From assembly GCA_000004985.1 (NCBI GenBank), contig GG738864.1: 64,000 bases of DNA. One strand, written 5' to 3'. The notes beneath the pieces were generated by a model. That model did not search any database and was not told where the DNA came from. It worked only from the letters and a program-made list of their open reading frames with translations. A program made the translations under genes and the position numbers. Source of the DNA: Naegleria gruberi. Its lineage: Eukaryota. Positions within the stretch are counted from its first letter, which is position 1. Every line of letters begins with the position of its first letter. This document shows, piece by piece, positions 35,494-60,157 of this stretch.

Positions 35494-37987
35494 TTGGGCA
35501 ACAAGTTAATTCCTTCATACAAAAGAGTACTCATTATCATTCATCACTCTCATCATCAAATAGGAATGTTGGATATTACTCATCAATTACCTCCGGAAAT
35601 ATTGTCAAAAGTATTTTCATATGTAGCTAGGGAACCATTGTATTTGTATTGCTTTTCAAATTTACCACTCGTATGCAAGACTTTTAAGAAATTATTGGAA
35701 ATGGCAATTTGCGTTCATCATGATGAGGGATGTATTGATGATCAATTAGAGTTGTCATTTTCAACAAATATCAAATCAACCTTTCAACATAATTTAGTGG
35801 TTGATTTTCTGACTCTTCCAATGCTATCAAAGATTGTAAACTCAAAAAGATTGAGTGATGTTTTGAGTGGTGTTTCTCAAATTTCAATTTTGGACCTTTC
35901 TAATCAGAGATTAATGTTTCAAGCACTACTAAAACAAAACATCAATGAATTACTCAATATTTTAGAGAGTATCTATTTGAAAGGAAAGATAATTAGCAAG
36001 ATTTATTTGTGTGGATGCTTTTCAATCGGAGAATCAATTCAAATGACTAATTTTGTAAAAAGTTTAATAACCATGCATAGAAAATCCACTTCAAAGAATC
36101 TATACATTGACGTTTCTCCTCTCTTTTCTCACAATGAGGCATCTAATGAAGCAACAGAATATTTGAGCTATAATATGGCTGTCACAGAATTGCAAGCAGA
36201 ATTTGAAGATCAGGGTATTCAAATAGTAGATTGGTTTGATTTATTATTCAATCCTATTGAAAGTGACACTGAGTTTTTAGAAAGATTGACCTCTGTAGAT
36301 CCAATGAATATTCCACACGTAAATGTAAAAGGGTGGACTCTTCTACATTCCTCAATACTCAACAGCTATTTCAAAAGTACTCAATACCTCTTGAGTTTAC
36401 CACAAGTTAATGTAAATATTTTCAGTGTTGCAAGTTTCTCCAATGATGACACAATTCGAATTGAACATGATGAAGATGAAATTTCTCCAATTCTTCACAA
36501 AACTGTTCCTACTGTAGATTTCAAATTGAAATACAAAGGCACACCATTATTCTTTGCCTTATATAAGTTGACTTCTAACACTCAATCCTCCTCCTCTAAA
36601 GATGGTGAAGTTGTAGATATGCTTATCCAAAGAGGAGCATCTGTTAATATTGTAGATAATTATGGAAGATCATTCCTACTGATTGCTTTATCATATGGTT
36701 TTCCATTTGATTTTATTACTCATATTGTAGAGAATTTTGGTCAAGTGCACCAATGTGACAACAATAAGAATAGCATTTTCCATCAAATATTCTATTCTCC
36801 ATCTCTATTGAAAGATACAAGGAAAACCAAAAAGGTCTTGGACTTCCTCTTCACCAAAGATTCTCTATTGAGTAATCAAGCTAACGCACCTGGTTTATTA
36901 CCTATTCAAATTCCTTTCCTCTTTTCCAATATGAAAAACATTCTCAATAAGGACTGTGCTTCAGAGTTAGTAATTGCTATTGCACATTTCATCAAATGTG
37001 TAGATGTAAATTTAGGATTGGAAGCATCCACCATGTATATTAATATGGCTATTGATGACTGCCTAACTCTTATCAATGAGTCTAAATTTTCCAAAAAGAA
37101 AATGTTTGTCATTACAAACAAGATATTTATTGGGCTATTGAGAATTAAACTAGATATTTCCTATCATATTGACAAGACAGATATTAATCAAGTAAGAAAT
37201 GAATTTATGAGATTGGATGACGAGTTGGGTCATAATGTTCTTCATAGAATGAAAAAATTGGATTGTATCAAGTCATTCTTTAAATTTCTAGAGCTAGATA
37301 GAGTATCCTATTACTTTTATATTAATAATCCAGATGTTAATGGAAATACTATCCTCCACCATTTAATATCATCGAGTGAAAATGAACTTCAACTCTCGAA
37401 CGATGTCGACAGAATAGTTGAAGAATTATTTGGAGATGTAGGATATAGAAACAAGGAGGGAGAAACACCAACATCTCTTTCAGCTTTGAACGGATACTAT
37501 GCAACAGTTCAGTAAGTTTTTCGAATATTTTTGTAAACTATATAATTATTTCAGTTTTATGCTTTCCAATCAACAAACAGCTCACTACTCTGAGAGACAA
37601 ATCATTGCCCACAACGATAATATACTTCACATTCTAAGAAGTAACAGAGAAAGTGCTTCCAAGAGTTCTGACAATAAGAGACCCTGCCATTCCATCAATT
37701 CTTGTATCAAACTCATTGAACAACAAAACGAAATGCTCATTCAAAATTCCAGAAATCCAAAAACCAAATCCATTAATTTAGCACTCCTCGAGGAGGAATT
37801 AAGAGGAGACAGCTACTCTGATGATAGTAGCACCTCATCAAGAACTAGCTCTGCACCCTCACTCTCTCTCATGGATGTCATCAATCTCAGCAAGGAAAAG
37901 AAACAATCATCCAAGAAGAAAGCTCAAGCCAACAAGAGAAACAAGAAGAAGAAAAGCAAGGAAAAAGACTTTGCCCTCGTCAAGTAA
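35494..37987 (+). CDS. F-box-like plus ankyrin-repeat protein; 2 exons.
   Basis: Exon 1 is 35494..37511, ending ...GYYATVQ-. The donor is GTAAGT at 37512, the intron is 43 nt and the acceptor is CAG at 37554. Exon 2 is 37555..37987 and continues in the frame of track ORF 37499. F-box-like: QLPPEILSKVFSYV. Ankyrin units: KGWTLLHSSILN; YKGTPLFFALYKL...MLIQRGASVNIVDNYGRSFLLIALSYG; VNGNTILHHLISS. The C-terminus is Lys/Ser-rich. Confidence 0.55.
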
Positions 37988-38158: not shown

Positions 38159-39608
38159 ATGTCCACAACATTCCTTGGTATTGTCATTCATTTTGCCAAT
38201 CCTTTGAATGGCGAGAATCAGAAATTACTTCTCGGAAAGAAAATCAACATTAACGATTATGATCACTTGATCACTCTGATAAAACAAAAGATTAATGAGA
38301 GTAATTCATCATCGAGTATTGAATATAATTTTTATAACGTCTTGTTGGAGGTGGAAGATGTAAATAGTAAAGGATCGTTTCATAGGCTAACGAATTTTGA
38401 TGAATTAATAACAAACAAAGACAAGGCTATACAAATTAAAGTTTCATCAGTTGAAATTGTTTCAAAGAGTAAAGAAGCTAAACCAACAGAAACTTCATCT
38501 CCTACCGATCAATCATTAACATTCCGATTGAGTCAATGTGCCAATGATGAATTTACTGATTATCAAGAGGATTTTGAAGATAAATTAATTTATGGAGATG
38601 ATTTATCGACAGTGGAAAATAATGCACAAGCACAGAGAACTGCCAGATGGAATGGAAGATACGAACCAACAACACTATTGGGATCTGGAACTTTTGGAAA
38701 AGTATTTCTTTGTGGAGAGTATGCATTTAATGGTACTCATAAAGGAACTGTTGCTGTGAAATTGATTAATTTATTAGGAACTGTTGAAGATTTCAATAGG
38801 AAAATTAAGGTTAGTTTTCTTTTTGAGATTTATAATGACTCTTTATTAGGAAGCCCTCTTCATGTTAAAATTGAAACACGATTCTATTATGCCATGTTTG
38901 GACTTGTTTGAAATTTATGATAAGGATACAACAGAACAATCGTTGGCAATTGTGTCTCCATATTATATTCATGGTGATTTGATGAAACAATTGCAAACAC
39001 AAAAGGAAAAGAAGGAACCACTTCCAGAGGAAATTATTTTTTCAATCACAAAAGATATACTCAGTGCTTTAACATATTTACATTCTAATGTTGGTGTGGC
39101 ACACAGAGATATTAAACCAAATAATATTTTCTTGGAAAAGATCAATTTGGGAAGGAAAACAGTCAAGATGGTTCTTGGAGATTTTGGAATAGCTCGAGAA
39201 ATGACAAGTGAAACAATGAAAAATGCCACAACTGCAGGTACACCACTCTATCTTGCTCCTGAAGTCAATTTTGGTAATTACAATTTCAAATGTGATATTT
39301 ATTCATTAGGTGTTACCCTATATCAAATGCTAAGCTTGGATTTGGAAACAAATTTGATTTCAAAATGTTTTTCAAACCATCCTTTAGATACATTACAACA
39401 ATCTTCCAATGCCAAGTACATTTCTGATTACACAGAACAAATGATTATGAGAAACTATCCAAAAGAAACCAAAACACTGAAGAAACTGAAAGGTAAGCAA
39501 TTCTCTTAATAATGAGATTTTTAATCTTTTCAAAAAGAAATGATGTTTTTAATGTTGACATACAACTACAAAAAGAGACCTAGTGCCAAATACTTCCTAG
39601 AGCAACTT
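38159..39608 (+). CDS. Protein kinase (Ser/Thr-type catalytic loop) with a ~170-aa non-kinase N-terminal region; 3 exons.
   Basis: - Exon 1: 38159..38809, containing GSGTFGKVF and VAVKL.
- A 40-nt intron follows (GTTAGT at 38810, acceptor TAG at 38849).
- Exon 2: 38850..39491, containing HRDIKPNNIF, DFGIARE, GTPLYLAPE, DIYSLG.
- A 45-nt intron follows (GTAAGC at 39492, acceptor AAG at 39536).
- Exon 3: from 39537, encoding ...YKKRPSAKYFLE... (subdomain XI RP motif).
- The exon-3 stop is read at about 39606-39608, but my reading of this line is uncertain by 1 nt; the alternative stop is 39650. Confidence 0.7.
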
Positions 39609-41893: not shown

Positions 41894-42925
41894 TTATTTC
41901 TTCAGTAATTGTTCTGCTTCTTCTTGAGTTATTTCTCTCAGAATATCTTTTGAAACTATTCCTCTTTTGAGTGTGAATAATCTATCCTGTCCAATTAACC
42001 AGAAATACCCTCTGTCATTGTATAATCTATACACATCTCCTTTCTTTACAGGGAGGTAAATATTTGACAAGTCTCTTCCAATACTATCCTCTTCAACAAT
42101 TACCCATTTCTTTGCCTTAGAGTCGTGCATAAACCCAACGTATTTGTTAGCTTCCTTTGGTTCTGGGTTTGCTGCTTTTTCAACACTTCTGAATAATTTA
42201 CACAATTCGAAAGGAATTTGAGACTTGTCCATAATGGAAATGGATTCTTTCATTTGAGAGAAATCAATGGCTATGGAAAAATCATTTCTGATATCTTCAG
42301 CTTGGTTTCTCTTGTATTCCTTTGCTTCTTCTTCAGTGATTTGAGTAAATTCGAATCCATGTTCTTGTAACAAACACATCTTTTCCTCATCAAGTATTGG
42401 GACATCACCATCTCTATTACAATTCATAACTATTTCATAACCTTGATTGACTGAATACTTGTTGGAGGAATCGTTGCTTCCTTCAACTTGATACTCAGCA
42501 AAAACAGGTTCAAGCAAAACACATTTCAACAAGTTCTGTAATCCATCAATGAATTCACTTCTATCAATTTTTTGGTCATTATTCAAATCCATAAATTGGA
42601 ACATCATGGCCAAAGCTTTGTTTCTCTTTTCTTGAGTTGGTGGTACGACAAATTCCATTGCAACATAATACGAAATATTTCCATTACTCACCAAACATGG
42701 TGCCATTCTCTTTGTTCCTGCCTTTTGCCACACAAAGTAAAATAAATCTTCGAGAAATTCGGCAATTTCCTCATTGGATAGTACCATATCTTTATCCTTA
42801 TCCAATTTTTCAAAGAACTTTGAGAGCTTATTGTTCTTTGGCAAATTACTTGCTTGGTATTGAATGCCCTTAGAGAGATCCTTGTGGAGTTCTTTAATCA
42901 GTGATGTAGCTGCTGAATTGCCCAT
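41894..42925 (-). CDS. EF-hand calcium-binding domain protein with an unknown C-terminal domain.
   Basis: 343-aa ORF with two canonical 12-residue EF loops (DKDKDMVLSNEE; DLNNDQKIDRSE). The start MGNSAAT fits N-myristoylation only weakly (Gly2 present, position 6 is Ala). The C-terminal ~130 aa is globular and unassigned. Confidence 0.6.
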   Translation of the reverse strand: MGNSAATSLIKELHKDLSKGIQYQASNLPKNNKLSKFFEKLDKDKDMVLSNEEIAEFLEDLFYFVWQKAGTKRMAPCLVSNGNISYYVAMEFVVPPTQEKRNKALAMMFQFMDLNNDQKIDRSEFIDGLQNLLKCVLLEPVFAEYQVEGSNDSSNKYSVNQGYEIVMNCNRDGDVPILDEEKMCLLQEHGFEFTQITEEEAKEYKRNQAEDIRNDFSIAIDFSQMKESISIMDKSQIPFELCKLFRSVEKAANPEPKEANKYVGFMHDSKAKKWVIVEEDSIGRDLSNIYLPVKKGDVYRLYNDRGYFWLIGQDRLFTLKRGIVSKDILREITQEEAEQLLKK

Positions 42926-43390: not shown

Positions 43391-45391
43391 GTGAACAATG
43401 TTAACGGCAAAATCAAGAAAAAAACCACAACAATGCAAGCAAGTTTATTGACAATTTATTGTCTGTTCTTTTTCATTGCCGTAAAAGTTGTGAATGCCCA
43501 AACGTGCACAGCCTCTTCTTTGATCTCCAATTTTACATCCAGTCAAGCTTTATCCGTACGATGCCAAGTTGGTTATGCTGCTGACACTCATCAATTACAA
43601 TGTAGACCTTACGATGTTGTCTTTAATGAAAATTATGGTAAGCCATGTAATTTCACAAGTGAATGTTTATTGTCATTTGTGTGTAGTGATCTATCAAAGA
43701 TTTGTGTTCCTTCCAAATCAAGAAAACTTGGGGAGCCATGTCTTGCAAGAGAAAGCTGTGTTGCTGACCTCGCTTGTGCCAATGGGATATGTGCACCACT
43801 TGTTGATAGTTATGAAAAGAAATTAGGAGAAAAATGTAGATACTCTGACTATACAACTAACAAGTATTACTACTGTGCAAGCCCAAATAAGTGTGACTAC
43901 ACAACCTATCCTAATTACTATTGTTTTGAGAATGTTTACAATGGTGTTGGAGGTTTTTGTGGTATCAATGAAACCTCTTTCCAATTTGTTCTTTGTAATC
44001 CTGGGTCTCTTTGCAATTCTAAAACTCAAAAGTGTGTCACAACCTATTACAATGCAACACTTGGTGATGCATGCAATACGTTCACAACAGATTCCTTCAT
44101 TGATTGTAAATCTCCATTCTATTGTGATGCTGGAAAATGCTTTGCTTCAGCATTTGTTGGAGCTGGTGAGTCATGCAATTACAAAAATACTACTTCATAT
44201 ATCATGAATTATTGCAATAGTAATTTCTTTTGTGGTCCAGGATCAAAGTGTGCAACATCAATTTCATCTCCGTTGGGTGGTTATTGTGGACTGAATGGTA
44301 CTGATTACTACTCTTGTGCTTCTGGTACTGCTTCTTGTTATATTGATAAGTGTGTTCCAAATGTTAAGTCGAACGTTGGTGGATTGTGTGAAATTGTAAA
44401 CTCTACAGGATCATTTTCTTGTAACTCTTCATTATATTGTTTCAATAATACTTGTATGGAAAAGGGTAATTTGGGTCAAAGTTGTGAACACAATACTAAT
44501 TCATGCAACTTGGGTTTAGTTTGTAGATCTGTGCTTCTTGGGAGTAGTCCAAGAACATGTGAAAATCCTGGCAAGAAATATGATAATTGTACATCAGTAT
44601 CTGATTGCCAAAGAGAATTATTTTGCAAAAGATCTAAGTGTACTAACCTGAATGGAGATCCTGTTGGATCGACATGTACTTTCCACTCTGATTGTGATTC
44701 TGGATTATGCTTGAATAACATCTGCTCATTGAATTACAATGAAACTACATGTTCAAGTGACACAATTTGTTCGAATTATGAGTCCAAGTGTTCGTGTGGT
44801 TCAGGGAAGTCAACATCAAACAGTTCAGGAAAATGTGCTAGTCTGAAGAGATGTAACGCTCTCCAAAGCAATATCAATGTCTGTCTTGGTAACAATGCAA
44901 GAGGTCCTCTTTTGACAACCATCTTTGACAAGTACAGTTCTGTTCACAAGGCATGCGCCAAAGAATTCTCTCAATATTATTCATGCTTAAGAATTGGATT
45001 GACCAATGCAGGAAATGTTCCTGCTTTACCCATTTCTGGTTTAGATATTAATGCAGATTTCGATATTGACCCAGCTCCTACCAAGTTTTACAAGTGTGGT
45101 GCTACCATTAGTTTAGGTACTAATACATGCTCAGGAAATGGTGATTGCGTTGCTGATGAAGTGTGTAAATGCTACTCTGGGTACTTTGGATCATATTGCC
45201 AAAGTAAAGTTATTCCAAAGCCATCAAATCCAATTGTACCAAACAAGTCCCTAGGTAATAATAATGGAGGAGGAAGTAATAGAAATGAAACTAATCCTAC
45301 TTCAGGATTTGCTGCAAATAATTCGAAAGAAAATCTATTGCTGCTTACCTTTAACATGATCATCTTGTTTCTGGGTATCAGTTTCCAATAA
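43391..45391 (+). CDS. Cysteine-rich secreted, probably GPI-anchored, surface protein with EGF-like modules.
   Basis: - Signal peptide after the second Met (MQASLLTIYCLFFFIAVKVVNA; probable start about 43433).
- More than 90 Cys in repeated CxxxxxC...CxxGxC spacing.
- One clear EGF-like module near the C-terminus (CSGNGDCVADEVCKCYSGYFGSYCQ).
- Ser/Asn-rich stalk.
- C-terminal hydrophobic tail (ENLLLLTFNMIILFLGISFQ), consistent with a GPI signal. Confidence 0.6.
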   Translation: MNNVNGKIKKKTTTMQASLLTIYCLFFFIAVKVVNAQTCTASSLISNFTSSQALSVRCQVGYAADTHQLQCRPYDVVFNENYGKPCNFTSECLLSFVCSDLSKICVPSKSRKLGEPCLARESCVADLACANGICAPLVDSYEKKLGEKCRYSDYTTNKYYYCASPNKCDYTTYPNYYCFENVYNGVGGFCGINETSFQFVLCNPGSLCNSKTQKCVTTYYNATLGDACNTFTTDSFIDCKSPFYCDAGKCFASAFVGAGESCNYKNTTSYIMNYCNSNFFCGPGSKCATSISSPLGGYCGLNGTDYYSCASGTASCYIDKCVPNVKSNVGGLCEIVNSTGSFSCNSSLYCFNNTCMEKGNLGQSCEHNTNSCNLGLVCRSVLLGSSPRTCENPGKKYDNCTSVSDCQRELFCKRSKCTNLNGDPVGSTCTFHSDCDSGLCLNNICSLNYNETTCSSDTICSNYESKCSCGSGKSTSNSSGKCASLKRCNALQSNINVCLGNNARGPLLTTIFDKYSSVHKACAKEFSQYYSCLRIGLTNAGNVPALPISGLDINADFDIDPAPTKFYKCGATISLGTNTCSGNGDCVADEVCKCYSGYFGSYCQSKVIPKPSNPIVPNKSLGNNNGGGSNRNETNPTSGFAANNSKENLLLLTFNMIILFLGISFQ

Positions 45392-45776: not shown

Positions 45777-48700
45777 ATGAAAGCATGTTTTTTCGTTCTA
45801 CTCTTGCTCTGCATCTTTCTGTTCAGCCTTGCAAGTCAAATTGACTCACAAAGCCTTCAATATAATATCAGCACGGTTGCAGGTGGTGGTTCTATTGTGG
45901 GTGATGGTTTATTAGCTAATGAGGCTATAACAAGCTACCCGTGTCAATTGGCAATTAGTTCGATTAGTGGAGATTTGTTTTTTGGAGAGGTGGTATCCAA
46001 TAGGATTCGTAAAATTACATCCTCAACTGGTGTGATATCTACTATTGCTGGAACTGGAACTGGTGCATATGGTGGAGATGGCTCCATGGCTACTGCTGCT
46101 CAATTGTTTTATCCTTATGGTGTTGCTCTAAGTTTGGGTGGTGAAATTTATATAGCAGATTCGAATAATAATAGAATTCGTAAAATAGCTACAAATGGTA
46201 TTATTACAACAATAGCAGGAACTGGAACACGTGGATATGATGGAGATGGTGCTTTGGCCACAAGTGCCAAGTTGAATTTTCCTTCATCCATAGCAATTAG
46301 TGCAACCAATGAAATTTATTTCACAGACCAATTGCAATCATAGGATTCGAAAAATAGCAACTAATGGTAATATCTCAACAATTGCAGGAACTGGAACTGG
46401 CAGCTATGGTGGTGACAATGCAATTGCAACAGGTGCACAACTTTATGCACCTGCATGTATTGCAATAGATTCTAATGGTGAATTTTACATTTCCGATTCA
46501 ATGAACCATCGTATTCGAAAAATAGCTACTAATGGTATTATTACAACAATAGCAGGAACTGGAACACATGGATATGATGGAGATGGTGCTTTGGCAATTA
46601 ATGCACAATTATACAGCCCCACGGGGGTTGTTGTCAACTCAAATGGTGATGTTTATATTGCTGACTCAGGTAATAACAGAATTCGAAAAATCTCAAAAGG
46701 ATACATCTCAACAGTAGCAGGAAATGGAATAGCTGGATATAGTGGAGATGGTGGACTATCAACAAGTGCTCAATTAGCCACTCCCCAATCAGTTGCTATT
46801 AATTTAAATGGCGAGATTATAATTGCAGATTCTAATAATAATAGAATTCGTAAAATAGCAACTAATGGAAAAATTTCAACAATTGCTGGAACATCATCAT
46901 TTGGAAATAACATACCAGCTACTTCAGCATCCATCTCACCAGTTGGTGTTCCCACTCTCTACAATAATAAGATAATTTTCGCAGATGAATCTCAAATTAG
47001 ACAAGTAGACCTTGCAACTAATATCATTTCATTAATATCTGGAACTGATTATTTGGCAAGTCCTACAGCAGCTATGTATTTCAACAATGAATTATATATT
47101 CTCTATTCAAAACTCAATTTAGATAAGCCAAAGATTAATATTGTTTCAAGAGTTGTTGGTTCTGAGGGATATAATGGCGATGATATTGCAGCCACTAGTG
47201 CACTGTTGAATTATGCTCGCTCAATTGCTGTCAATTCAAATGGTGATGTTTATATTGCTGACACTTATAATAACAGAATTCGTAAGGTCTCATTTTCAAC
47301 TGGAATCATTTCAACAGTAGCAGGAACTGGAATTGCTGGACAAAATGGTGATGGTAATTTAGCTACAAGTGCACAACTAAATTTTCCTTCAGGAGTTGCT
47401 GTGAGTTCAAATGGTGATATTTATATTGCTGACACTGAAAATCATAGAATTCGTAAGATAGAAACTAATGGATACATTGCAACAGTTGCAGGATCTGGAG
47501 CATCTGGATATAGTGGAGATGGTGGGCTGCTAACTAGTGCTAAATTCCAACAACCTCAAGGAGTGGCTGTGAGTTCAAATGGTGAGATTTATATTGCTGA
47601 CACTGAAAACCATGTGGTTCGTAAAATTTCAACTTCGAATGTACTTTCTACAATTGCTGGAACTGGTTCTTATGGATACAATGGTGACGGTGGATTGGCA
47701 ATTACTGCAAAATTATTCTCTCCCATAGGAGTTGCAATAAGTTCGAGTGGTGAAGTTTTTATTGCTGATAATAACAATCACAGAATACGTAAAATTGCAA
47801 AAGATGGCTATATTTCAACAATTGTTGGCACTGGTTTGAATGGGTATGATGGAGATGGCGATTTGGCTACGAATGCTAAATTGGGTAATCCTCAAGGTGT
47901 GACTCTAAGTCCAACTGGTGAATTGTTTATTGCTGACCAAAACAATCATAGAATTCGTAAAGTAGCAAGTAATGGATATATTTCAACTGTTGCTGGTAAT
48001 GGTAACTTTGGATTTAGTGGAGATGGTGATTTGGCAACAAATGCTGAATTGAATAGTCCTTCAGGAATAGCATTCAGTTCCATTGGTACCATGTATATTG
48101 CTGATCGTTTAAATAGAGTAATTCGAAGAGTAATCTCTGGTAATATATCCACCATTGCTGGAGGTGTTGGTGATGGAGGACCAGCTACTGGAGGATACAT
48201 TCAAGCACAATCATTTGACATTTCTTCAACTGGTGAGATTTATATTGCTGACACTGAAAATCATAGAATTCGTAAAGTTTCAACATTGGGTAAAATTTCA
48301 ACTATTGCAGGAACTGGTGCAATGGGATACAGTGGTGATGGTGGATTGGCAATTACTGCAAAATTATCCTCTCCCGTAGGAGTTGCAGTTAGCTCAACTG
48401 GTGAAGTTTTTATTGCAGACCGAGACAACCATAGAATTCGTAAAGTAACACTTTCTGGTATCATTACAACCATTGCAGGAAATGGAACTAGTGGTTTTAA
48501 TAGTGATGGAATTGAAGCAAAATTTGCTCAATTGAATAGCCCTTCCTCAGTCACAATTTCAGGTGGTGAAATCTATATTGCTGACACAAACAATCATAGA
48601 ATTCGTCAAATATCCAATACTGGTATTATTAAAACAATTGCTGGAAATGGATTTGGTGGATATATTGGTGATGGTGTATTGCCACCTAATGCTCAATTGA

Positions 48701-51700
48701 ATAGTCCTTCAGGAGTTGCAATTTCTTCCACTGCTGAAATTTACATTGCAGAAAATAAGAGAATTAGAAAACTTACAGCGTTCTGTACAGAGAATGGTGT
48801 GTTGATTGATGGAAAGTGTGTATTTCAATGTTTTGGATATACGAATAGTAATTCCTCACTTGTTTGTTCTGGAAAGGGCAACTGTATTGGAAATGATAAG
48901 TGCAACTGTTCATGGCCATACTCTGGTTCCAAATGTGATGAGTTTTATTGCAATGGAGTGTTGAATACTAACAAAACATTTGTGTGTTCATCTCATGGTA
49001 CTTGCTCATCTCCAAACAATTGTTCTTGTGTCGATGGTTTTTATGGAAATATTTGTGAATTCTTTTATTGTAATGGCGTACAACAAAATAGTTTAAATGT
49101 ATGCTCAGGTCATGGACTCTGCTCTTCTTTGAATAATTGCACCTGTCAACAAGATTATTCAGGCATTGATTGTGAAAATTTCCATTGTTATGGACTGTCT
49201 AGAGTTGATCCTAAAGTTTGCTCATCTCATGGAATTTGCTCTTCCATAAATAATTGCTCATGTGCAACTGGATATGGTGGATCTAAATGCAACGAATATT
49301 CATGTTATGATGTGAATTCTACGAATAAGACAGTTTGTTCTGGAAGAGGAACTTGTTCTTCTCCCAATAATTGTACATGCGATCCAGGATACTATGGATC
49401 AAATTGTGAATTGTACGATTGTTATGGAATATCCAAAAACAATTCGAATGTCTGCTCAGGACATGGTACTTGCATTGCTATCAATAATTGTACATGTACA
49501 GATGGTTACTATGATACCAAATGTGATTCATTCAATTGTGCAGGAGAGAAATTCACTGGTCAATCACTGTGTCAGAATAATGGTACTTGTTCTAATCCTG
49601 GTAATTGTGATTGTCCTTATCAGTTTGGAGGTGCCAGATGTGAATATTACAAATGTTATACCTATACTTCTAATGAAGCAAAAGTATGTGGCGGGCATGG
49701 TACTTGTTTAAATTACAATAATTGTTCTTGCTCTGGCAAGTGGATTGGTGACGATTGTACACAGACTACTTGTTATGGTAAAAGTTCAAACTCTAGCTCA
49801 GTATGTGGTGGAAGAGGTAATTGCACAGACTTTAATCAATGCACATGTTATGATGGGTATAGAGGTGTCGAATGTCAACACATTGTCTGTTTTGATAAGA
49901 TTGAAAACGATACATCAGTTTGTTCAGGAAATGGCAAATGTCTAACATCAAACAATTGTACATGTCAAATTGGTTATGTTGGAAATGAATGTCAATATCA
50001 CGAAATTTATTTGAATACCTCATCTGCCATAATATTTTCATTCCAGGAAAGTTTAATGAAATTGTTGCCAAATGAGAGTGGAATATTTTCATGTTCTGAA
50101 ATTTTCACTGATTCTGAAATTGCCAAATTTGGAGAAAGTACTTCGATTTCTTGCCAATGGAGAAGAAATTCACTCCTAATTCATCTTGGATTTGATTATT
50201 CTATTCAACAATACTCAATTATTCAATCAAAATTCAACTTTTCAATGAGAGTTTCTAGCTTGTCCTCAGTTTCTAATAGTGATGCTCCATCTCCAACTTG
50301 TTCTTTCGGATATGTATTGAATGAAGCTTCTCCATTATTGGATGTAGTGATACGTTTGAATTGTGATGAGAATTTGCATGGTTTTAAAAAGAGTAGAACC
50401 AGTTGGATGTGTAGTCAATGTACAGGAGCAATTTCATCAATTTTAAGTAACTATTCGAATAGATCCAGTGTTTATATTCCAATTTCGTATATGAACGCTT
50501 TGAATCCTGTTCAAGGATACAAGACAATTAATTTGCAAGCTTCTTATTCATCATCTGTTTCTTCCACCATTTCCACTAGTAAGGAAGTAAAGGTTCAAAC
50601 CTATACGAAATCTTTACCTCCAAGTTATTACTGGCTAAGTGATAATTATGATGGAAAAACCTATTCATGTGTTGGCCATAATTGTATCATTGAAACTTCA
50701 TTGAATAGTTTAAACTCCTCAATTTCTTATTCATTCTCTGGTTTATTTAGTTTATTGAACACTGATTTATATTCGAAACAAATGGTGAGATTGATAAATG
50801 AATTTTCAGGAGGAATTGTCGACAGTGAATTCAGTTCTAACATGCAAGTTTTTGGAGTTCAACTCAAGACCTATGTTTACTTACCGTATAGTATTGATTC
50901 ATTCAAATATTCCACATTTACAAATTTGGATTATGTCATGACAGGCGTCAATAGAACCTACTCAATCAATGCAGATAACTTAATAACTATAGGTTTGACT
51001 ATTGATGATCCATACATTTCAAAATACACATTAAGTGATTACATGGTATTCTCCTGGAAATGTTTCCAAGTTTCTCCTTCTAATAGGTCTTTAATTTTGA
51101 CCGATAATTTGTGTTCCTCAATAACTGACAATGCCAAATCAAATATTGAATTGGATATCAGCAAAATGTCTTTGAAAGAAGGTTCATATTTAATATCTGC
51201 TTCAATTTCATCGACTAAATACTTTGTTACAACAGTTTACAATTATGAAGGATGGATTGACTTGTTGGGAATTTCACAGGATTCTCCTCAGATAACTACA
51301 GATTATGTACCTGCTATTACTCCTTCTCATCACAATATTTATTTAAGAAATGTGGTGAAATCTTCAACAAGTGTTTCATTCTATTGGAAACTCAAAAGTG
51401 GTGAATTGAATATTGACGAAACTGTTGAAGATTTCCTTCAAAGAAATACAGTTTCTAAATCTATCTTGGGTAACAATGTTGAAATTATCTTGAATATTGA
51501 CAATGATTATCTCATCCAAGGAGAATATTATGAATTTGAATTGTCAACCAAGAATTCTAACGGTGTTTCAAATATTTCCATTTCAACAAGAATGGATTTC
51601 ACTCCTCGATTGTCATGTAATGTGGAAAATGTGAAGAATGAAGCTAACTTGACCAGTTTTGAATCTTTAATATCTATTACATGTGTAAAATTGCCATACG

Positions 51701-54134
51701 AAAGTATATCAAGTTTCGTCATGGAATTCCATTCACAAAACGAAAGATTAGGAGTCATTTCGAATACTCCAAAGAAGGCTCTTATTACCAGAGTTCCTTA
51801 TGCAATGGATGGAACAGTTACCTTAATCGTGAAACTTCAAAATTTATATGGATCTATTGGAATTTATAGAACTACTATCAGCGCTCAATTACCAAATGCT
51901 TTGACAAGTGACAACTCTATTTCTTCAAGATTTACATATGTATCCAAACAATTCCAAATTCTCAAAAATGCTCAACCAGCCAAAATTGAAGTTTCCAACG
52001 AAGTCAACACCTTACTTTCTTTATTAATCCAAAACGAAACTCTTTCTAAAATTTCAGAGAAAATTTCAAAGGAATTGAAATCTGATCAATTAGTTTCCTT
52101 TAATACAATGCTCAAAGAAATGCTAACCCTCACCAAGAGTCTACAAGACATTACTTACAAAGTTGATGAAAGATTAATTCAATTAATTCTGCCAATTGTC
52201 AACAAAATTTCCACAATTCTCAAATTAACTCTTGACACATCGTCATTATCCAATTTTGCTTCAGAATTGGAAATTTGGTTGGACTGGATTTATTCAGGAA
52301 TGAATAAGGCACTCAATTACTATCCAACTTTCATTTACAAGGAATTATTAGATGAATTTCATTTACAAGAAATTGTTTCGTTACAAAATATACTTTCGAA
52401 TATATACCAAAATAATTTGGATCAACAATTTAAATACCACAAGTACAATTTACAATATATCAAGCTTACAGGAAGTAATAGTGATAATTCAAGCTTTGTG
52501 GAAGATGTTGAGTTTTCTGATTTATTGAATGACAAGTCAATTTCACTTTCTGTTTCTAATTTTAAAGTTGATATGAAATTACCAAGTGATTTTACCAATC
52601 AAATTTCATTGAAATCAAAATCAAAACTATACTATTCCATTACCTCATTCAGTGATAATCAAACTGGTTCAAAACTTTTACAAAACAAACCAATAATTGA
52701 CCTATCTCTGTACGATACATCTTACAATGCAATATCAGTTGACAACATTAATCCACCAATAGTTTTCAAGTTCCAAGGATTGTTTTCCACTAACAAGACT
52801 AATATTAACACAACTTGTGTCTATTACAATACCATACTAGGAAAATGGTCAACCAATGGATTGCAAACAATTACAAGCGTTACCAAACGAACTGAAGAGT
52901 ACATGTACTTTGATATGGAATGTCATTCAAGTCACTTGTCTGTATTCTCAGTTCAAGAGGTTGATTACAACACCCCAATTATACCAGCCATTTCATCTAA
53001 CAAAGCTTCAAACCAACAAGAAAATCTCACCATTATTTTAGCTACTGTTTTACCTGTTAGCTTTTTAATCCTTATTTTCATTATTATCCTCTTTGTGTTT
53101 ATCATTTTACTATTCAGATTTAAGCAAAAGAAAGCAAATGAATTTGCCATTGCAACCAAAACCAATCTTGAAATGGAAGGTTTCTCAAGCAGTGATTTCC
53201 CATCCTCAGAAGGAAGCATGTTTATTCATCCTCTTATGAGTATTTCCTCAAATGGAACAACTAGTGAAGCATTCAATCCATTGTCAAGATATTCTGATTT
53301 AGTAAGAATTGGCCAAGGAGCTTTTGGAAGTGTTTTTAAAGCATTTGATAGTAAGACGTCAACTGTTAAGGCGATTAAGGTAATTAAATATTCATCCATG
53401 GAGGAGTTGAATAATTTCATGAAAGAAGGAACGCAGTTGATGAATGTGACACATCCTTATATTTTGAGAGTGAATGATTTCTTTGTGAGTAAGGATCAAT
53501 TGCTATGTATAGATATGGATTTTTATGAATTAGGAGATTTGGTCAAATTGACCAATGTTGAATTTGATTGCTCGGAGAAGTTAATCAAACAAATTATTTA
53601 TCAAATGTGTCAAGCTTTGGATTATATTCACTGCAATATGAAAATCATTCACAGAGATATCAAACCATCTAATGTTTTTGTAAAGAGTATGGAAAATGAC
53701 GATATTCACATTATTGTTGCCGATTTCGGATTGGCTAAATCAAATATTGGTGGATCAATGAATAATTCCTATGCAGGTACACCTATATTTATGGTAAGTT
53801 TTCAAATATTTCTTTCGATTCGAATAATTTTTAGTCTCCTGAACTTGGCTTGGGTGGAAAATATTATTACAATACTGATATTTACAGTTTAGGTGTTACT
53901 GTATATCAAATAATGACCAAAGACACCTCTACTTCAATCAGTCAATTGTATCTTGGAAAGGAACAAAATGAAGTTACAACGCTATTGAGAAAAAAGCTTA
54001 AAGATGGTGGACATTATTCTGAACGAGTTGTGGAATTGGTTTTACAAATGTTAACAAAGGATAATTTAACTAGGCCACAAGCTCAAGATATTTTGGAAAA
54101 TTCCTATTTTGATGATTTGAGAATGAAACGATAA
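45777..54134 (+). CDS. Giant receptor-like Ser/Thr kinase: signal peptide, ~25 NHL repeats, ~20 EGF-like modules, ~1,300-aa unknown ectodomain, TM and protein kinase. Interrupted by an apparent +1 frameshift near 46328 and by one 41-nt intron in the kinase domain.
   Basis: - Track ORFs 45777..46343 and 46300..53892 encode the same ~55-aa NHL unit (...NHRIRKIATNGIITTIAGTGT.GY.GDGG.AT.AQL..P.GVA....GEIYIAD..) in two frames.
- Deleting one C from GACC at about 46328 restores ...EIYFTDNCNHRIRKIATNG..., matching the repeat consensus.
- EGF-like units: CSG.G.C...N.C.C..GY.G..C.
- TM segment: LTIILATVLPVSFLILIFIIILFVFIILLF.
- Kinase motifs: GQGAFGSVF, VKAIKV, HRDIKPSNVFV, DFGLAKS, GTPIFM.
- Donor GTAAGT at 53794, acceptor TAG at 53834.
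- The last exon runs from 53835 and encodes SPELGLGGKYYYNTDIYSLGVTVYQIMT...RP.A.DIL.., through to 54134. Confidence 0.7.
45990..48790. repeat. Tandem array of about 165-nt coding repeats (NHL units) with the recurring core aatcatagaattcgtaaaat.
   Basis: The nucleotide motif (a/g)a(t/c)(c/a)a(t/c)agaat(t/a)cg(t/a)aaaat(a/t) recurs about 20 times at 150-170 nt spacing across the 5' third of the giant gene. Confidence 0.7.
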
Positions 54135-54252: not shown

Positions 54253-55925
54253 TTATTCTTCATCTGATTCGAAAGCCACATTCTTCTTTTTAGGGAATGT
54301 TTGCAGAGCTCTAGATTTTCCTACCGGGCTACTAACCAGTGGATTTGAGATTAATCTACTAAAACTTCCACTATTTGTAGAAAGGGACAGTTGTGCAAGG
54401 GATTGTTTCAAGGTTTCACAAATCTCTTCCCATTCAGGTCTTGCATTCATGTCTGCTGACCAGCATTTAGTAATGAGCTTGATTATCAAATTATTTACAA
54501 CGTTATACTCAATTCTAAAGTGCTCACCAAAGAACATTTCCCTGAGCTCTGTTTGGGTTGGTATCTTTGGACGCATTTCTTCATGAATCACTTTGTGTGT
54601 AATATCATAAATGTTGAGTCCTGGATACAACTCCTTTTCAAAAATTAACTCATATATACAAATGCCAAAACTGTAGATATCCGCTTTGAATGAATAATGA
54701 CCTTCTGCCAAAATCTCTGGAGCAGTAATTTCAACTGTACCACATTTAGTGTGCTTCTTTTGTTTGTTGTTAAATAGCCTAGCAATACCAAAATCTGAAA
54801 TCTTTAGAGTCCAGTCATTAGTTACAAGGCAGTTAGATACTTTCACATCAGAGTGAATAATATTTTTTGATTTGAGATAGTTCAGTCCGTTAGCAGCGTC
54901 CAATAGCAATTTACATTTCTTTTTCAGGGTGAGTCCAGATTTGAAAGAGCTCTTTTGTAATCTTCCTTGTAAGGTCTCATCATCGATTGAAAACCTGGAA
55001 ATGTGTTGTGTATTGAGCTTTATCAGGTTGGTGTCATCTAGCTCCGTTGTCGGTGGGTGATTAATAGGACTCATGGTCATGCCTGCACCAGAATAGGATG
55101 TTTTCAATAGTTTGTCTAAACTTCCTCTCGAGCAATATTCTGTGACAATATAAAAGAATGGAGGTTTGATAGATGCAGCAATGAACTGCACAATATTTGG
55201 ATGTCTGATTGTACTCATTATTTGAGTCTCCTTCATGTACTCTTTCAGTGGATCCTCCAACAAGTCACAAATTAAGCATTGCTTGACTGCAACAAGAACA
55301 TTGAGATATCGTGCCTTATAAACAACTCCACTACTACCAACACCAATTTGTTCCATCAATTCCAAATCATCAGATGAAATACTCATACTTCTCAATTGCG
55401 GAGAGACTCGAATGATCGCATCATTCAATTCCTTTGACAAATCATTGTATGGTAACTCTTCTGGATTTTCAACAGGTTTCAACTTGTTGAAATGTGCATT
55501 CAAATCTTCAGCAATATGAGAGCTAGTATTTAAATCCGTTAAACCACTATCATTCAAATCAATTACTATCGAATTTGAATTATCAACCCTTGATCCCACA
55601 TTGGTGATTTAATTTGCATACTCTTAAAATCCATCTCATCATTCATTCCATAATATTCACCACTATCCCTCTTTTTCATGAGTGGTTTCGTTTTCTCCGA
55701 ATTTTTACAACAATAATTACAAGTTAGTGTATTTACAAGTGTTCTACATAATCCTCTCCTTCCCAATCGACTCTTTATCATACATAGCAAACAACCACTC
55801 ATCATGATATTGACCAATAACATGGCAGAACTTAGCACTATCAATGACCACTGAATCACAGGAGAATCATTCAGTGGTAAAAGCAAGATATTGTTCTCAA
55901 CACTCATCGGAAAATAATAACACAA
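54253..55925 (-). CDS. Membrane-anchored protein kinase (TKL-like) with an HSD (not HRD) catalytic loop; 2 exons.
   Basis: - Exon 1 is 55925 (or the MSVENN Met at 55904) to 55622. It encodes a short N-terminal segment, a TM helix (VIQWSLIVLSSAMLLVNIMMSGCLLCMI) and a Cys-rich juxtamembrane region, ending ...GMNDEMDFK-.
- The donor is GTATGC at 55621, the intron is 33 nt and the acceptor is AAG at 55589.
- Exon 2 is 55588..54253, in frame with track ORF 54253..55599.
- Kinase motifs: GVGSSGVVYKA, VAVKQ, HSDVKVSNCLV (catalytic Asp retained), DFGIARL, APEIL, DIYSFG. Confidence 0.65.
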
Positions 55926-56686: not shown

Positions 56687-58729
56687 ATGAGTGGTGCTGA
56701 TTTTGTGTTGTCTGCCACTACTACCAATAATAACAATGGTGATGATACTATTCATCAAAAGATACAATTATTTACTCAAGCTATTGGTGAGGTAGACCAA
56801 GAAGGAAAGTCAACAACTAATGCAAGTAGTGCTCGTAGGTGGAGTTTTTCATCAGATTCTTCATCCTCCTCTTCTCATTCGTCAAATTCATCATCGGGTG
56901 CAGATGATACTGCTGATGATGAAGATGAAGAAATAACAATGGTTTGGAATAATGCAACTGACAGTAATGTTGATAATAATATTGAAACTAGTGTTACAAC
57001 TCCTTTGAATAATAAGATTGTTATTATTACGAATGAGGAGGACATTGGAGAGGAAGAAAATACATTATCAGACTCATCAGATATTATTTCGAATACTTAT
57101 AATTCAATAGAACAGAAGGAAGAAGATAAACCAGTCGTACCTTCTTATGAAAAGTTTAGTTTGAAAGAACAGTTGAAACTCAAGCTTCCTTCTTCAATAC
57201 TTCATCTCACTTCTCCTAATAACACAACTAGTAATAATAACAGTTCAACACAATTTACAACAACAACACTAACAGACAATAGTTCAAAATCAAGCTCTCC
57301 ACAAACACCAACCGAGAAACCAACAACAAATGGTGATGAATCACTGCAAATCATGGAATTAAATATTGAAAGTCCAAATGAAGAGTTAGACGATACATCG
57401 AGGAGATTTACATTCAATTCTACCGATATTATCAAGGCAGTTTTTGAAGGAAAACACGATGAGGAAGTTGGAAAACTGTTACAAACAGATGTTTCTGATT
57501 ATTTAACACAACTAGTCAAGAGGAAAAATCAAATTACCAATCCAGTGGTGATGCCGAGTCCCTCTCCTATCAAGAGGATGAACTCTACCTTCCTCACTCC
57601 TTCTACACCTTTAGGGATGACAAAGTCTGGCTCATCTAGTGATATATCCAGTCCTTGTTCATCACCAAATTTGGACAAATTGAATACAATTATTGAAAAG
57701 AAAAAACTTTCCAGGTCTAATACTACTGTTCACAATTATACACTCTCCCCAGAATTAAAGCAGAGAAGAAAAATTACAGCAATTGGATCCGGAATGATTC
57801 CAAATGATTTTAATATGGTACAATCTCCATTGAGTGATTATGGAATTGATTTTTCACAATCTGATAGCAAAATAACTGCTTCCAAAAGGTCGATGAGCAT
57901 TGGGCCAAATCTTCAATCCTACTATTCTTCATCTACAAATGCAATGAAGAGTGATCCTAACTCTGTTTCAACAGACGATATTTACAGAGTTACAATTCTA
58001 GGATCTGTTGGTGTTGGAAAATCATCATTAATTAACAAATTTATTAAGGGAACATTCTCCAATGAGTATAATTCTACAGTTTTCGAGGATATTTATCACA
58101 AGCCACTCATGTTTTTGAAATATCAGGAAATTAAGCTTTTGGAAATATTGGACACAAGTGCCCTACACATCAAACATTACAAAAATAAGGCAAATCAAGA
58201 GGATGAATCACCATCCATGGAGATACCTTCAAGTTTTCTTAGTGATTATATTATTAACTGTGATGCATACATACTAGTGTACAGTGTGGATGACATTCAA
58301 AGTTATAAATATTGTAAGGATATTTACAAATCAATTGTCGGTCAGAAAAAGATGGCTGGTCTTAAAAGAACTAGATCAAACTTGAGAGCTAGTGGAAACA
58401 GTCTCATAGCAACGCCAAGAACAGTTGCTCGATCTGATGTTCCTCTTGTCCTTGTTGGAAACAAGTCAGATGTTGGAATTGAGGAAAAATTTATTGATTC
58501 AAAAGTAGTTTGGGAAGATGTACATACAGAGCTAGCATTTGGTTCAAATTGTTCTTTTGTGGAAACTAGCGCCAAGAAGGAAGATGTTGATTGTATTTTC
58601 CAAGCACTTGTAAATAGAATTTGTTTGAGGGAAGAACCAAAGACTTCTTCCAAAATACAAATATCCTCTTCACTTCCAACCAAAAAGACAGGTCAACACG
58701 ATTCAAATAAAAAGTGTGTCATTCTGTAG
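56687..58729 (+). CDS. Ras-like small GTPase domain (C-terminal, CaaX box CVIL) fused to a ~430-aa Ser/Thr/Asn-rich N-terminal extension. Switch II lacks Gly and Gln (DTSALH).
   Basis: - G1: ILGSVGVGKSS.
- G2: YNSTVFED.
- G3: ILDTSALH (canonical DTAGQE).
- A ~30-aa insert follows.
- G4: LVGNKSD.
- G5: ETSAKK.
- C-terminal KKCVIL is a geranylgeranyl-type CaaX.
- The N-terminal extension is low-complexity (SSSSSHSSNSSSGADDTADDEDEE; NNTTSNNNSSTQFTTTT). Confidence 0.7.
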   Translation: MSGADFVLSATTTNNNNGDDTIHQKIQLFTQAIGEVDQEGKSTTNASSARRWSFSSDSSSSSSHSSNSSSGADDTADDEDEEITMVWNNATDSNVDNNIETSVTTPLNNKIVIITNEEDIGEEENTLSDSSDIISNTYNSIEQKEEDKPVVPSYEKFSLKEQLKLKLPSSILHLTSPNNTTSNNNSSTQFTTTTLTDNSSKSSSPQTPTEKPTTNGDESLQIMELNIESPNEELDDTSRRFTFNSTDIIKAVFEGKHDEEVGKLLQTDVSDYLTQLVKRKNQITNPVVMPSPSPIKRMNSTFLTPSTPLGMTKSGSSSDISSPCSSPNLDKLNTIIEKKKLSRSNTTVHNYTLSPELKQRRKITAIGSGMIPNDFNMVQSPLSDYGIDFSQSDSKITASKRSMSIGPNLQSYYSSSTNAMKSDPNSVSTDDIYRVTILGSVGVGKSSLINKFIKGTFSNEYNSTVFEDIYHKPLMFLKYQEIKLLEILDTSALHIKHYKNKANQEDESPSMEIPSSFLSDYIINCDAYILVYSVDDIQSYKYCKDIYKSIVGQKKMAGLKRTRSNLRASGNSLIATPRTVARSDVPLVLVGNKSDVGIEEKFIDSKVVWEDVHTELAFGSNCSFVETSAKKEDVDCIFQALVNRICLREEPKTSSKIQISSSLPTKKTGQHDSNKKCVIL

Positions 58730-59014: not shown

Positions 59015-60157
59015 TTAGGCTGCCCCCTCCGGTCCAATATTATTGCTGGAAATATCTAGTATTACCAAGTTGGGCAATCTACTTATTGCTCTAGCACCTT
59101 CCACACCAAAATGATTATAAGAAATATCTAGTTCAGTCAATTGTGTCATTTCACCAATGTAATTAGCTCCTGTTGCATTCATCTTTGTTGCACTAACATT
59201 CAAAATCTTTAAATTCTTCAATTTCTTAATGAATCTAGCACCCTCAGATTCTATTATATTTGATTGAACATCGAGGAGAGTGAGATTTCTTAGTTGAGAT
59301 ATAAATTTAATTCCTCCCAATTCAACAATATTGAAGGTAGCTCTCAATTCTATTAAATTCTTCATTTCTCCCAAATATTTAGCTCCTTCTGGATTAATTT
59401 CATTCCGACTCACATCTAAACTTGTCAAATTCACTAATCCACTAGAAAGAAGTCTCATGCCCTCTGGACCGTTATAATATCCACTAATCTTTAAGTATTT
59501 TAAATTATTCATCCTTGCAATAGCTTCAAACCCTTCCAAATCAATCATATTCCAGCAAATAACAAGTGAAGTCAACTGTTTCATCTTGCTAATTGAAATA
59601 GCTCCGTTAGGTCCTATGTTATTCAAAGGTATTTGCAATGTTTTCAAATTCTTCATTTTACTAATATATTTGGCTCCTTTACGCCCAACAGAATTTTTCC
59701 CAATATCCAAATAGGTCAATTCTTTCAGTTTGCTGATTAGTTTTGCCTCCTTTTCTTTTAATCCATTTTCATTAATCGAAAGACAAGTTAAATTTTTCAT
59801 TAATGACAAAACTGTTAAAAATTGTTTGTCTCTAATAAGATTCGCATAATTGACCTTAACATTTCGAATAGAGTTAAGCACTTGACTATTTCTCAAGTGT
59901 TGAACTCTTTCCTCTTGAATAATTTGATGAAAATCCAAACAAAGTTTAGAATATTGGTTGATCAAGAAGTAGGTCCATTGTTTGGAAATTAAAGGACAAT
60001 ATTTTAAAATTTCCCAACCTGTTAGAAAGCTCATAATTTCATGTATAATATCATCAGGAAGGAAATTATCTGAAAAGTTTCTAATAGAAACCTCGTGTGG
60101 TGTCGTTAATTTGGAGTTTCGCATTTTTTTTATTGTAAACATTTCAATATGGAACAC
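59015..60157 (-). CDS. F-box-like plus RNI-type LRR protein.
   Basis: 380 aa. N-terminal F-box-like segment: FSDNFLPDDIIHEIMSFLTGWEILKYCPLISKQW. It is followed by about 11 LRRs of 24-28 residues (LDISSNNIGPEGA; LDVSRNEINPEGAKYLGEMKNL...). This is the same family as 26760 and 60430. Confidence 0.75.
   Translation of the reverse strand: MFHIEMFTIKKMRNSKLTTPHEVSIRNFSDNFLPDDIIHEIMSFLTGWEILKYCPLISKQWTYFLINQYSKLCLDFHQIIQEERVQHLRNSQVLNSIRNVKVNYANLIRDKQFLTVLSLMKNLTCLSINENGLKEKEAKLISKLKELTYLDIGKNSVGRKGAKYISKMKNLKTLQIPLNNIGPNGAISISKMKQLTSLVICWNMIDLEGFEAIARMNNLKYLKISGYYNGPEGMRLLSSGLVNLTSLDVSRNEINPEGAKYLGEMKNLIELRATFNIVELGGIKFISQLRNLTLLDVQSNIIESEGARFIKKLKNLKILNVSATKMNATGANYIGEMTQLTELDISYNHFGVEGARAISRLPNLVILDISSNNIGPEGAA

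Follow-up and report, generated by a model that had tools for sequence, protein, structure and literature searches.

Closest described systems

GAIN domains typify adhesion G-protein-coupled receptors (GPCRs) and polycystin-1, and to our knowledge they have been studied almost only as the activation switch of the former and the cleavage module of the latter. Adhesion GPCRs (e.g., BAI3/ADGRB3, GPR110/ADGRF1, GPR126/ADGRG6, CELSR1, and the latrophilins) carry a large modular adhesive ectodomain, with the HL/(S or T) site (the slash marks the bond to be cleaved) in the turn before the last strand, right before the first transmembrane (TM) helix of their seven-transmembrane (7TM) G-protein-coupled domain. 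In the polycystin-1/sea-urchin REJ family, a long beta-rich module is followed by GAIN/GPS beside the membrane; suREJ1, composed of EGF, lectin, REJ, GPS, and one TM helix, provides a precedent for a single-TM GPS protein. In plants, wall-associated kinases unite EGF modules and a Ser/Thr kinase, while PknD from Mycobacterium tuberculosis (sensor PDB ID: 1RWI) places an NHL propeller outside and a Hanks-type Ser/Thr kinase inside the membrane, connected by a single TM helix. The present work concerns a gene on the + strand at positions 45777-54134 of a 64,000-nucleotide stretch of Naegleria gruberi DNA (the window; contig GG738864.1, assembly GCA_000004985.1), the predicted product of which combines NHL repeats, EGF-like modules, and a GAIN domain with a cytoplasmic Ser/Thr kinase.

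We consider it probable that the locus encodes one type-I receptor kinase specific to Naegleria (signal peptide, NHL, EGF, stalk, GAIN, TM, kinase) that uses the GAIN self-cleavage mechanism, and that the single frame break in the gene is an error. The juxtamembrane GAIN/GPS domain is the most distinctive feature of the protein and was absent from an earlier annotation made from the DNA letters alone (hereafter, the sequence-only reading). As a GAIN-domain adhesion-type receptor with a kinase output, the protein brings known kinds into a new combination and does not constitute a new category.

According to Arac et al. 2012 (PMC3321182), a paper in which the word kinase does not occur, the position of GAIN domains is always immediately before the first TM helix. 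Full-text literature searches retrieved no paper on a single-pass GAIN-kinase and none tying Naegleria to GAIN/GPS, to NHL repeats, or to a receptor of this type. Proteins of the family are already public as unnamed predictions, and automatic annotation sees GAIN-B in relatives.

The features of the gene are listed below, with amino acid numbers referring to the corrected product.

45777..45836, + strand: start codon and signal peptide (MKACFFVLLLLCIFLFSLAS), a hydrophobic N-terminus read from the translation that aligns to the N-terminus of the N. gruberi protein P0001
45861..48783, + strand: NHL repeat array, amino acids 29-1002, 18 blades of ~56 amino acids (Pfam NHL and TEN_NHL, strand motifs, DNA period of 168-169 nucleotides, nt)
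46327..46336, + strand: apparent 1-nt insertion (C of GACC or T of AATTG) splitting the gene (repeat-anchor spacing, TRF period, ortholog alignment)
48784..50004, + strand: EGF-like array, amino acids 1003-1409, a two-cysteine lead-in and 10 six-cysteine modules at 1018-1405 (Pfam, cysteine-pattern count)
50005..51867, + strand: family-specific beta-rich stalk, amino acids 1410-2030 (~620 amino acids)
51868..52962, + strand: GAIN domain, amino acids 2031-2395, with helical subdomain A (~200 amino acids, 8 long helices) and beta-sandwich subdomain B containing the GPS
52933..52941, + strand: putative autoproteolysis triad H2386-L2387-S2388, predicted cleavage HL/S (conservation, position in the model)
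53026..53112, + strand: single TM helix, amino acids ~2417-2445 (highest Kyte-Doolittle window, 3.65)
53290..54113, + strand: Ser/Thr kinase domain, amino acids ~2505-2765, split by an intron (Pfam Pkinase, E=1e-51)
53794..53834, + strand: 41-nt GT..AG intron (GTAAGT...TTTTAG) between kinase subdomains VII and VIII
54132..54134, + strand: stop codon

GAIN domain and GPS motif

The stretch leading directly up to the TM helix is CVYYNTILGKWSTNG...MECHSSHLSVFSVQEV. The putative triad at amino acids 2386-2388 is separated by about 30 amino acids from the start of the helix (~2417), which places the GAIN domain directly N-terminal to the TM segment. In an alignment of the GPS/GAIN region of the window protein with four homologs, the GPS positions C (C2347), W, C, H, L, S, and F are invariant in all five proteins. 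The pattern C..W..C..HL[ST].F, with a TM helix 30-50 amino acids further on, is found again in all family members whose C-terminus is intact, and HL[ST] is present in all members carrying the GPS motif. A relative, P0128, exceeds the Pfam GPS cut-off (23.2 bits) and bears the automatic UniProt name 'GAIN-B domain-containing protein'.

The AF2 model of the last 368 amino acids of this region (pLDDT 81.9, pTM 0.80) shows a helical subdomain of ~200 amino acids followed by a beta-sandwich, i.e., both subdomains of the GAIN fold (helical A and beta-sandwich B). Foldseek comparison of this model with the PDB gave no significant match. CD97, latrophilin-3, GPR97, and GPR56 also rank within the top ten structural matches, and the non-GAIN matches are helical-repeat proteins, which we interpret as covering subdomain A only. 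In the model, H2386-L-S2388 occupies the turn that joins the last two strands (E346-354 and E359-364), the location of cleavage in GAIN domains. After the predicted cleavage site, the five aligned members conserve a beta-strand only (S-[VL]-F-[ST]-[VI]-Q-E), past which follows a variable linker rich in Ser, Thr, Pro, and Asn.

Transmembrane helix and kinase

Outside the signal peptide, the Kyte-Doolittle profile shows no other segment like the TM helix, which is followed by 326 amino acids containing the Pkinase domain. The Pfam match spans positions 1-263 of the 263 of the Pkinase profile. The spliced translation contains IGQGAFGSV, AIK, KEGTQL, HRDIKPSN, DFG, SPE, DIYSLG, and TRPQA, which constitute the catalytic set of eukaryotic protein kinases: the Gly-rich loop (GxGxxG), the β3 Lys, the αC Glu, HRDxKxxN, DFG, an APE-like motif, the Asp of subdomain IX, and the Arg of subdomain XI. 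Judging from these motifs, the kinase is motif-complete, of the eukaryotic Ser/Thr type, and apparently active. Its score with Pkinase (176 bits) exceeds that with PK_Tyr_Ser-Thr (111 bits).

The nearest solved kinases belong to the STE20 family (STK24/MST3, E=2e-28, STK25, MST4, SLK, and MAP4K1) or correspond to NEK1, and the 60 best solved matches are all eukaryotic kinases, with neither PknB nor PknD among them. Bacterial Ser/Thr kinases from a large, metagenome-dominated database reach 80-116 bits over ~37% of the query, while the best eukaryotic solved structure reaches 103 bits. The sequence-only reading had proposed a signal peptide, one TM helix, and a cytoplasmic Ser/Thr kinase with intact catalytic motifs, all of which are recovered here; the Pfam search on the corrected translation, which it named as a check, detects NHL, EGF, and Pkinase alike.

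NHL propellers, EGF array, and stalk

In the corrected protein, Pfam assigns the N-terminal region to NHL (E=2e-119) and TEN_NHL (E=1e-106). The array contains 15 clear RIRK-type strand motifs at ~56-amino-acid spacing and, judged by that spacing, three degenerate units in the gaps, giving 18 blades. The NHL domain of teneurins is a six-bladed propeller, and that of the Bacillus inaquosorum teneurin-like protein (BiTLP) occupies residues 929-1255 with ~54 amino acids per blade (PMC13018210). Because the NHL domain is six-bladed in teneurin and BiTLP, the 18 blades suggest about three propellers (approximately amino acids 29-375, 376-690, and 691-1002) and not the four that had been proposed from ~25 repeats. 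Among solved structures, the array is closest to the NHL domain of BiTLP (PDB IDs: 9IFO and 9PT5; 365 bits), with far lower scores for animal teneurin-2 (93 bits), TRIM71 (91 bits), and the PknD sensor (62 bits). Outside Naegleria, the best matches of the array are giant bacterial NHL proteins (40-50% identity); a bacterial source of the NHL repeats themselves is plausible from these similarities.

The EGF region matches Pfam EGF_2 (E=1e-40), EGF_TEN (116 bits, cut-off 65), and EGF_Teneurin, and a regular-expression count finds exactly 10 six-cysteine modules, with 62 cysteines in the region. The EGF-like nature of the region thus stands as first described, with ten modules in place of the ~20 then estimated. 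A further cysteine-poor ectodomain is likewise present, although it measures ~1,000 amino acids instead of ~1,300 and resolves into the beta-rich stalk of ~620 amino acids and the GAIN domain of ~365. The stalk, between EGF and GAIN, matches no Pfam family at E<=1, and a profile of the middle region finds no sequence match among solved structures in the PDB. Probably it consists of several Ig/FN3-like sandwiches. Any resemblance to REJ is a motif-level impression only. Pfam REJ (PF02010) is not matched at E<=1 in any of five family members.

Gene model and reading frame

In the AT-rich window (GC ~34%), the + strand of 45777-54134 contains two long open reading frames (ORFs), 45777..46343 and 46300..53892, which overlap in different frames. 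Dropping one base near 46329 and splicing the 41-nt intron yields the 2,771-amino-acid product, a predicted type-I membrane protein, which corrects the ~2,780 amino acids first estimated. Both ORFs encode the same NHL-type repeat of ~56 amino acids, and the break falls within one repeat unit (mid-blade). At the junction, the distance between the GAA-ATT-TAT and AGR-ATT-CG anchors is 31 nt, whereas ten other units with the same anchor pattern have 30 nt; similarly, the TRF period is 169 nt at the junction copy versus 168 nt elsewhere. Base 46329 was chosen for removal in the corrected translation, and without it the sequence reads EIYFTDNCNHRIRKIA, in register with the repeat consensus. The corrected protein, signal peptide included, can be aligned with P0001 with no gap over the frameshift site. 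The locus is one gene, both ORFs forming a single reading frame after the removal of one base, since the product is collinear with P0001 over 96% of its length, the alignment is gapless at the frameshift, and the junction unit has 31 and not 30 nt. An intron as the cause of the frame break was rejected in view of the gapless alignment and of a repeat unit longer by exactly 1 nt; an unconstrained scan for GT..AG introns at this position was uninformative.

Most simply, the frameshift is explained as a 1-nt sequencing or assembly error, because two isolated 1-nt breaks, this one and another in a neighbouring gene, occur within 10 kb in genes that otherwise appear intact. Beyond the break, the other ~7.6 kb contains no further stop or frame break, and the kinase and GPS motifs are all intact.

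Removal of the intron near the 3' end restores the frame (...GTPIFM/SPELGLGGKYYYNTDIYSLGV..., the slash marking the splice junction), followed by SPE, DIYSLG, and the rest of the kinase C-lobe up to the end of the ORF at 54134. The intron position is kept in homologs, as spliced P0017 and the N. fowleri protein P0121 read FM/SPELG at this point. Both the unity of the gene across 45777..46343 and 46300..54134 and the intron at 53794..53834, as put forward in the sequence-only reading, are therefore borne out by repeat spacing, TRF period, gapless alignment, the GTAAGT..TTTTAG boundaries, and the restored C-lobe. In the public N. gruberi models P0001 and P0019, the conserved 41-nt-type intron after ...GTP(I/L)FM is left in as coding sequence, so that they end in nonsense and lack the kinase C-lobe.

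Family and distribution in Naegleria

The best database match of the window protein is the N. gruberi "predicted protein" P0001 (a 2,807-amino-acid model), with 63% identity over 96% of the query, followed by the N. gruberi paralogs P0017 and P0019 and then by the relative P0032. P0001 is the ortholog. Its domain order from signal peptide to kinase is the same as in the window protein, and it contains 13 EGF modules versus 10 here. Identity between the two proteins varies by region and amounts to 87% in the kinase, 76% in the stalk, 72% in GAIN, 62% in EGF, and 58% in NHL. The paralogs P0017 and P0019 and N. fowleri FDP41_013523 (P0143/P0121) have the stalk, GAIN, TM helix, kinase, and intron position in common with the window protein.

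Word-index homolog searches proved unreliable for sequences of this composition: the 1,005-amino-acid middle region retrieved nothing, and the C-terminal 531 amino acids missed P0001, P0017, and P0121. The extent of the family is therefore based on an exhaustive profile search of the middle region against 1.84 billion representative proteins, which gave 25 matches. Full-length matches are P0001, P0019, P0032, and P0121, the last of which clusters with N. fowleri FDP41_013523 (P0143; UniProt name "non-specific serine/threonine protein kinase"). The remaining matches are either fragments of the family or proteins matching GAIN subdomain B only. The family thus appears confined to Naegleria, in agreement with the earlier proposal of a lineage-specific surface receptor joining an NHL and EGF ectodomain to a Ser/Thr kinase, presumed active from its motifs; the same architecture was found in Naegleria proteins only.

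Nine full-length proteins with subdomain B (the P0126-P0134 group from N. gruberi and N. lovaniensis), eight of which were covered by the Pfam scan, have the layout NHL-EGF-GPS-TM with cytoplasmic tails of at most 38 amino acids. The reverse holds for P0149 (N. lovaniensis) and P0150, in which the same kinase subfamily follows NHL-EGF-TM and both stalk and GAIN are missing. Both groups are assembled from the same building blocks in the same order as the window receptor, each without one of the two parts, the former sharing the GPS motif with it and the latter the kinase subfamily. Within Naegleria, the same modules thus occur in three layouts, one with GAIN but no kinase, one with the kinase but no GAIN, and one with both, from which we conclude that domain shuffling in this lineage brought GAIN and kinase together.

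In P0032 (an ENA contig, 2,166 amino acids), the catalytic motifs are degenerate (HGNIKTSN; Gly-loop RIGSGRTF). This protein is probably a pseudokinase paralog, and some members of the family may accordingly be pseudokinases.

Comparison with described receptor families

The window protein resembles adhesion GPCRs in its large modular ectodomain and in the location of its HL/S site. It differs from them in having one TM helix and a kinase in place of the 7TM domain, in the larger subdomain A, in the presence of two GPS cysteines only, and in lacking conservation of the hydrophobic, 7TM-binding half of the Stachel. Membership in the adhesion GPCR class (class B2) was rejected on the basis of the single hydrophobic segment followed by a kinase, with no 7TM domain. 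The succession of a long beta-rich module and GAIN/GPS beside the membrane recalls the polycystin-1/REJ family; here, however, PLAT and the 11-TM channel-like domains are absent and the output is a kinase. Assignment to polycystin-1/PKD-REJ proteins was rejected given the lack of a REJ match at E<=1 in the five members and the single TM helix with a kinase.

With teneurins and BiTLP (PMC13018210), the protein shares NHL blades that are nearest to the six-bladed NHL domain of BiTLP and EGF modules that match the Pfam teneurin EGF families above their cut-offs. In contrast to them, it has no FN-plug, YD/RHS shell, or toxin domain, and its presumably three tandem NHL propellers lie N-terminal to EGF in a type-I protein with a kinase, whereas teneurins are type-II adhesion proteins. 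Teneurin or teneurin-like membership was rejected, as the match is limited to NHL and teneurin-type EGF and the Pfam scans found neither a YD/RHS nor an FN-plug family.

PknD has the reverse polarity (kinase N-terminal, propeller C-terminal), a single propeller, and neither EGF nor GAIN. Membership in the PknD type was rejected in view of the order signal peptide-NHL-TM-kinase, the NHL match of 62 bits, and the absence of PknD from the top 60 kinase matches. Metazoan receptor tyrosine kinases were rejected as well, on the basis of the HRDIKPSN loop in place of the tyrosine-kinase form (HRDLAARN or HRDLRAAN), the higher score of Pkinase than of PK_Tyr_Ser-Thr, and the Ser/Thr specificity of the nearest solved kinases. 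The statement of the sequence-only reading that EGF-kinase receptors are metazoan receptor tyrosine kinases is too narrow, given the plant wall-associated kinases.

Proposed mechanism and alternative explanations

In the mechanism that we propose, the NHL propellers and the EGF array would form the end that binds a ligand or a surface (e.g., prey, substrate, or other cells). The GAIN domain would cleave itself at HL/S during maturation; as in adhesion GPCRs and polycystin-1, the large N-terminal fragment would then remain attached, without a covalent bond, to the final beta-strand of the part anchored in the membrane. A pull on the bound ectodomain, or its shedding, might then change the state of the membrane stub (e.g., its oligomerisation), which in turn would switch the cytoplasmic kinase. 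Both autoproteolysis and mechanosensing are inferred here from the sequence. The tethered-agonist ('Stachel') step cannot apply, because there is no 7TM pocket, and this is consistent with the conservation of the beta-strand part only after the cleavage site. A bolder proposal, which we put forward tentatively, is that GAIN works as an autoproteolytic latch sensitive to force and in this way gates a single-pass Ser/Thr kinase, and that the protein represents a third, Stachel-independent class of GAIN output next to adhesion GPCRs and proteins of the polycystin-1 type, shuffled together in a discobid amoeba only distantly related to animals. If true, the ancestral job of GAIN would be the regulated shedding or mechanical gating of any membrane stub, and not the presentation of a tethered agonist to a GPCR.

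Several points weigh against a self-cleaving receptor kinase. Pfam GPS remains below threshold on the window protein (20.2 versus 22.5 bits) and is undetected in four homologs, and two of the four canonical GPS cysteines are present. The H-x-S/T triad is necessary but not sufficient for cleavage, and several adhesion GPCRs with a canonical triad are uncleaved (PMC13062082). The paralogous kinases P0149 and P0150 are entirely without GAIN, so the kinase would seem to be useful without it. Apart from the GAIN domain, the count of three propellers comes from blade number alone, and this copy would be a pseudogene if the frameshift were real. The uncleaved triads, the kinases without GAIN, and the reduced set of cysteines favor the main rival explanation, in which the architecture is the same, GAIN is an uncleaved rigid juxtamembrane spacer, and signalling proceeds through ligand-induced dimerisation as in ordinary receptor kinases. 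We nevertheless judge it unlikely, as the invariance of H, L, S/T, and the flanking F across paralogs that are ~40% identical in the region is hard to explain for a pure spacer, and as GAIN is better conserved than the binding domains.

The remaining alternatives concern the integrity and the origin of the gene. Were the extra base near 46329 real, the protein would be truncated after 188 amino acids and the locus would be a recently inactivated pseudogene; the stop at 46341..46343 in the frame of the start codon fits this, and in a multi-copy family the loss of one member would be tolerable. It is nonetheless improbable, considering the 7.6 kb free of further lesions with intact kinase and GPS motifs, the N-terminal ORF that is still 60% identical to P0001, and, as a sign of assembly indels, the similar lone 1-nt break in the gene next to it. 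Taking the ORFs as they stand, one could also postulate that each is a gene of its own, the first (45777..46343) for a small secreted NHL protein and the second for a large protein that begins within 46300..53892. This is scarcely credible: the second ORF would have no signal peptide despite ~2,200 amino acids of ectodomain-type modules, the break lies in the middle of an NHL blade, and the ortholog is continuous across it. Finally, the combination of NHL and kinase might have been acquired from, or be a direct counterpart of, bacterial PknD-type sensor kinases, the best NHL matches outside Naegleria being bacterial and many bacterial kinases scoring close to the best eukaryotic solved structure. 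However, both EGF and GAIN are modules of the eukaryotic type and the membrane topology is opposite, and because of this a PknD-like ancestor for the whole receptor is not plausible as judged from sequence. Moreover, the PknD sensor scores far below the teneurin-like protein in the NHL array (62 versus 365 bits), no PknB or PknD structure occurs among the 60 best solved kinase matches, and the bacterial kinase matches cover only ~37% of the query. The link that the sequence-only reading drew to PknD-like kinases, by convergence or acquisition, is consequently weak, and we regard such an origin as very improbable.

Implications

With its intact triad and its place directly before one TM helix and an apparently active kinase, the conserved GAIN domain lends itself to asking whether cleavage or shedding by GAIN can govern an effector that lacks a 7TM pocket, and the sister proteins without the kinase or without GAIN serve as built-in comparisons within the lineage. 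The family is a candidate contact or adhesion sensor in Naegleria, including the pathogen N. fowleri, which has a paralog. The analysis also corrects public gene models, with two N. gruberi models that read through the intron and a frame break in this assembly.

Neighbouring genes

A separate, convergent gene follows the receptor gene.

54253..55925, - strand: TKL-like kinase, possibly anchored in the membrane at its N-terminus (PK_Tyr_Ser-Thr, E=3e-51)

HSD replaces HRD in this kinase, and its kinase domain carries an insert of ~60 amino acids. Its N-terminal ORF (ATG at 55907) contains a TM-like stretch (Kyte-Doolittle 2.1); relative to the kinase ORF it is shifted by one frame and overlaps it by 34 nt, with no space for an intron, which amounts to a second apparent 1-nt frameshift. 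The second membrane kinase reported earlier as tail-to-tail 119 bp downstream is thus indeed convergent, but lies at 118 bp and would be membrane-anchored only if the 1-nt frame change is repaired.

Two further pairs of + strand ORFs overlap in different frames (35494..37515/37499..37987 and 38159..38911/38862..39509); these could reflect introns or more 1-nt indels. Upstream of the receptor gene, a 666-amino-acid ORF (43391..45391, + strand) has a marginal EGF_2 match (22.2 bits) and a sub-threshold match to DUF7107, and its product may be another Cys-rich secreted or surface protein. The neighbourhood is rich in signalling genes, and nearby ORFs encode a protein with a Ras/Roc-type GTPase domain (56687..58729, + strand), a leucine-rich-repeat protein (59015..60157, - strand), and an EF-hand protein (41894..42925, - strand).

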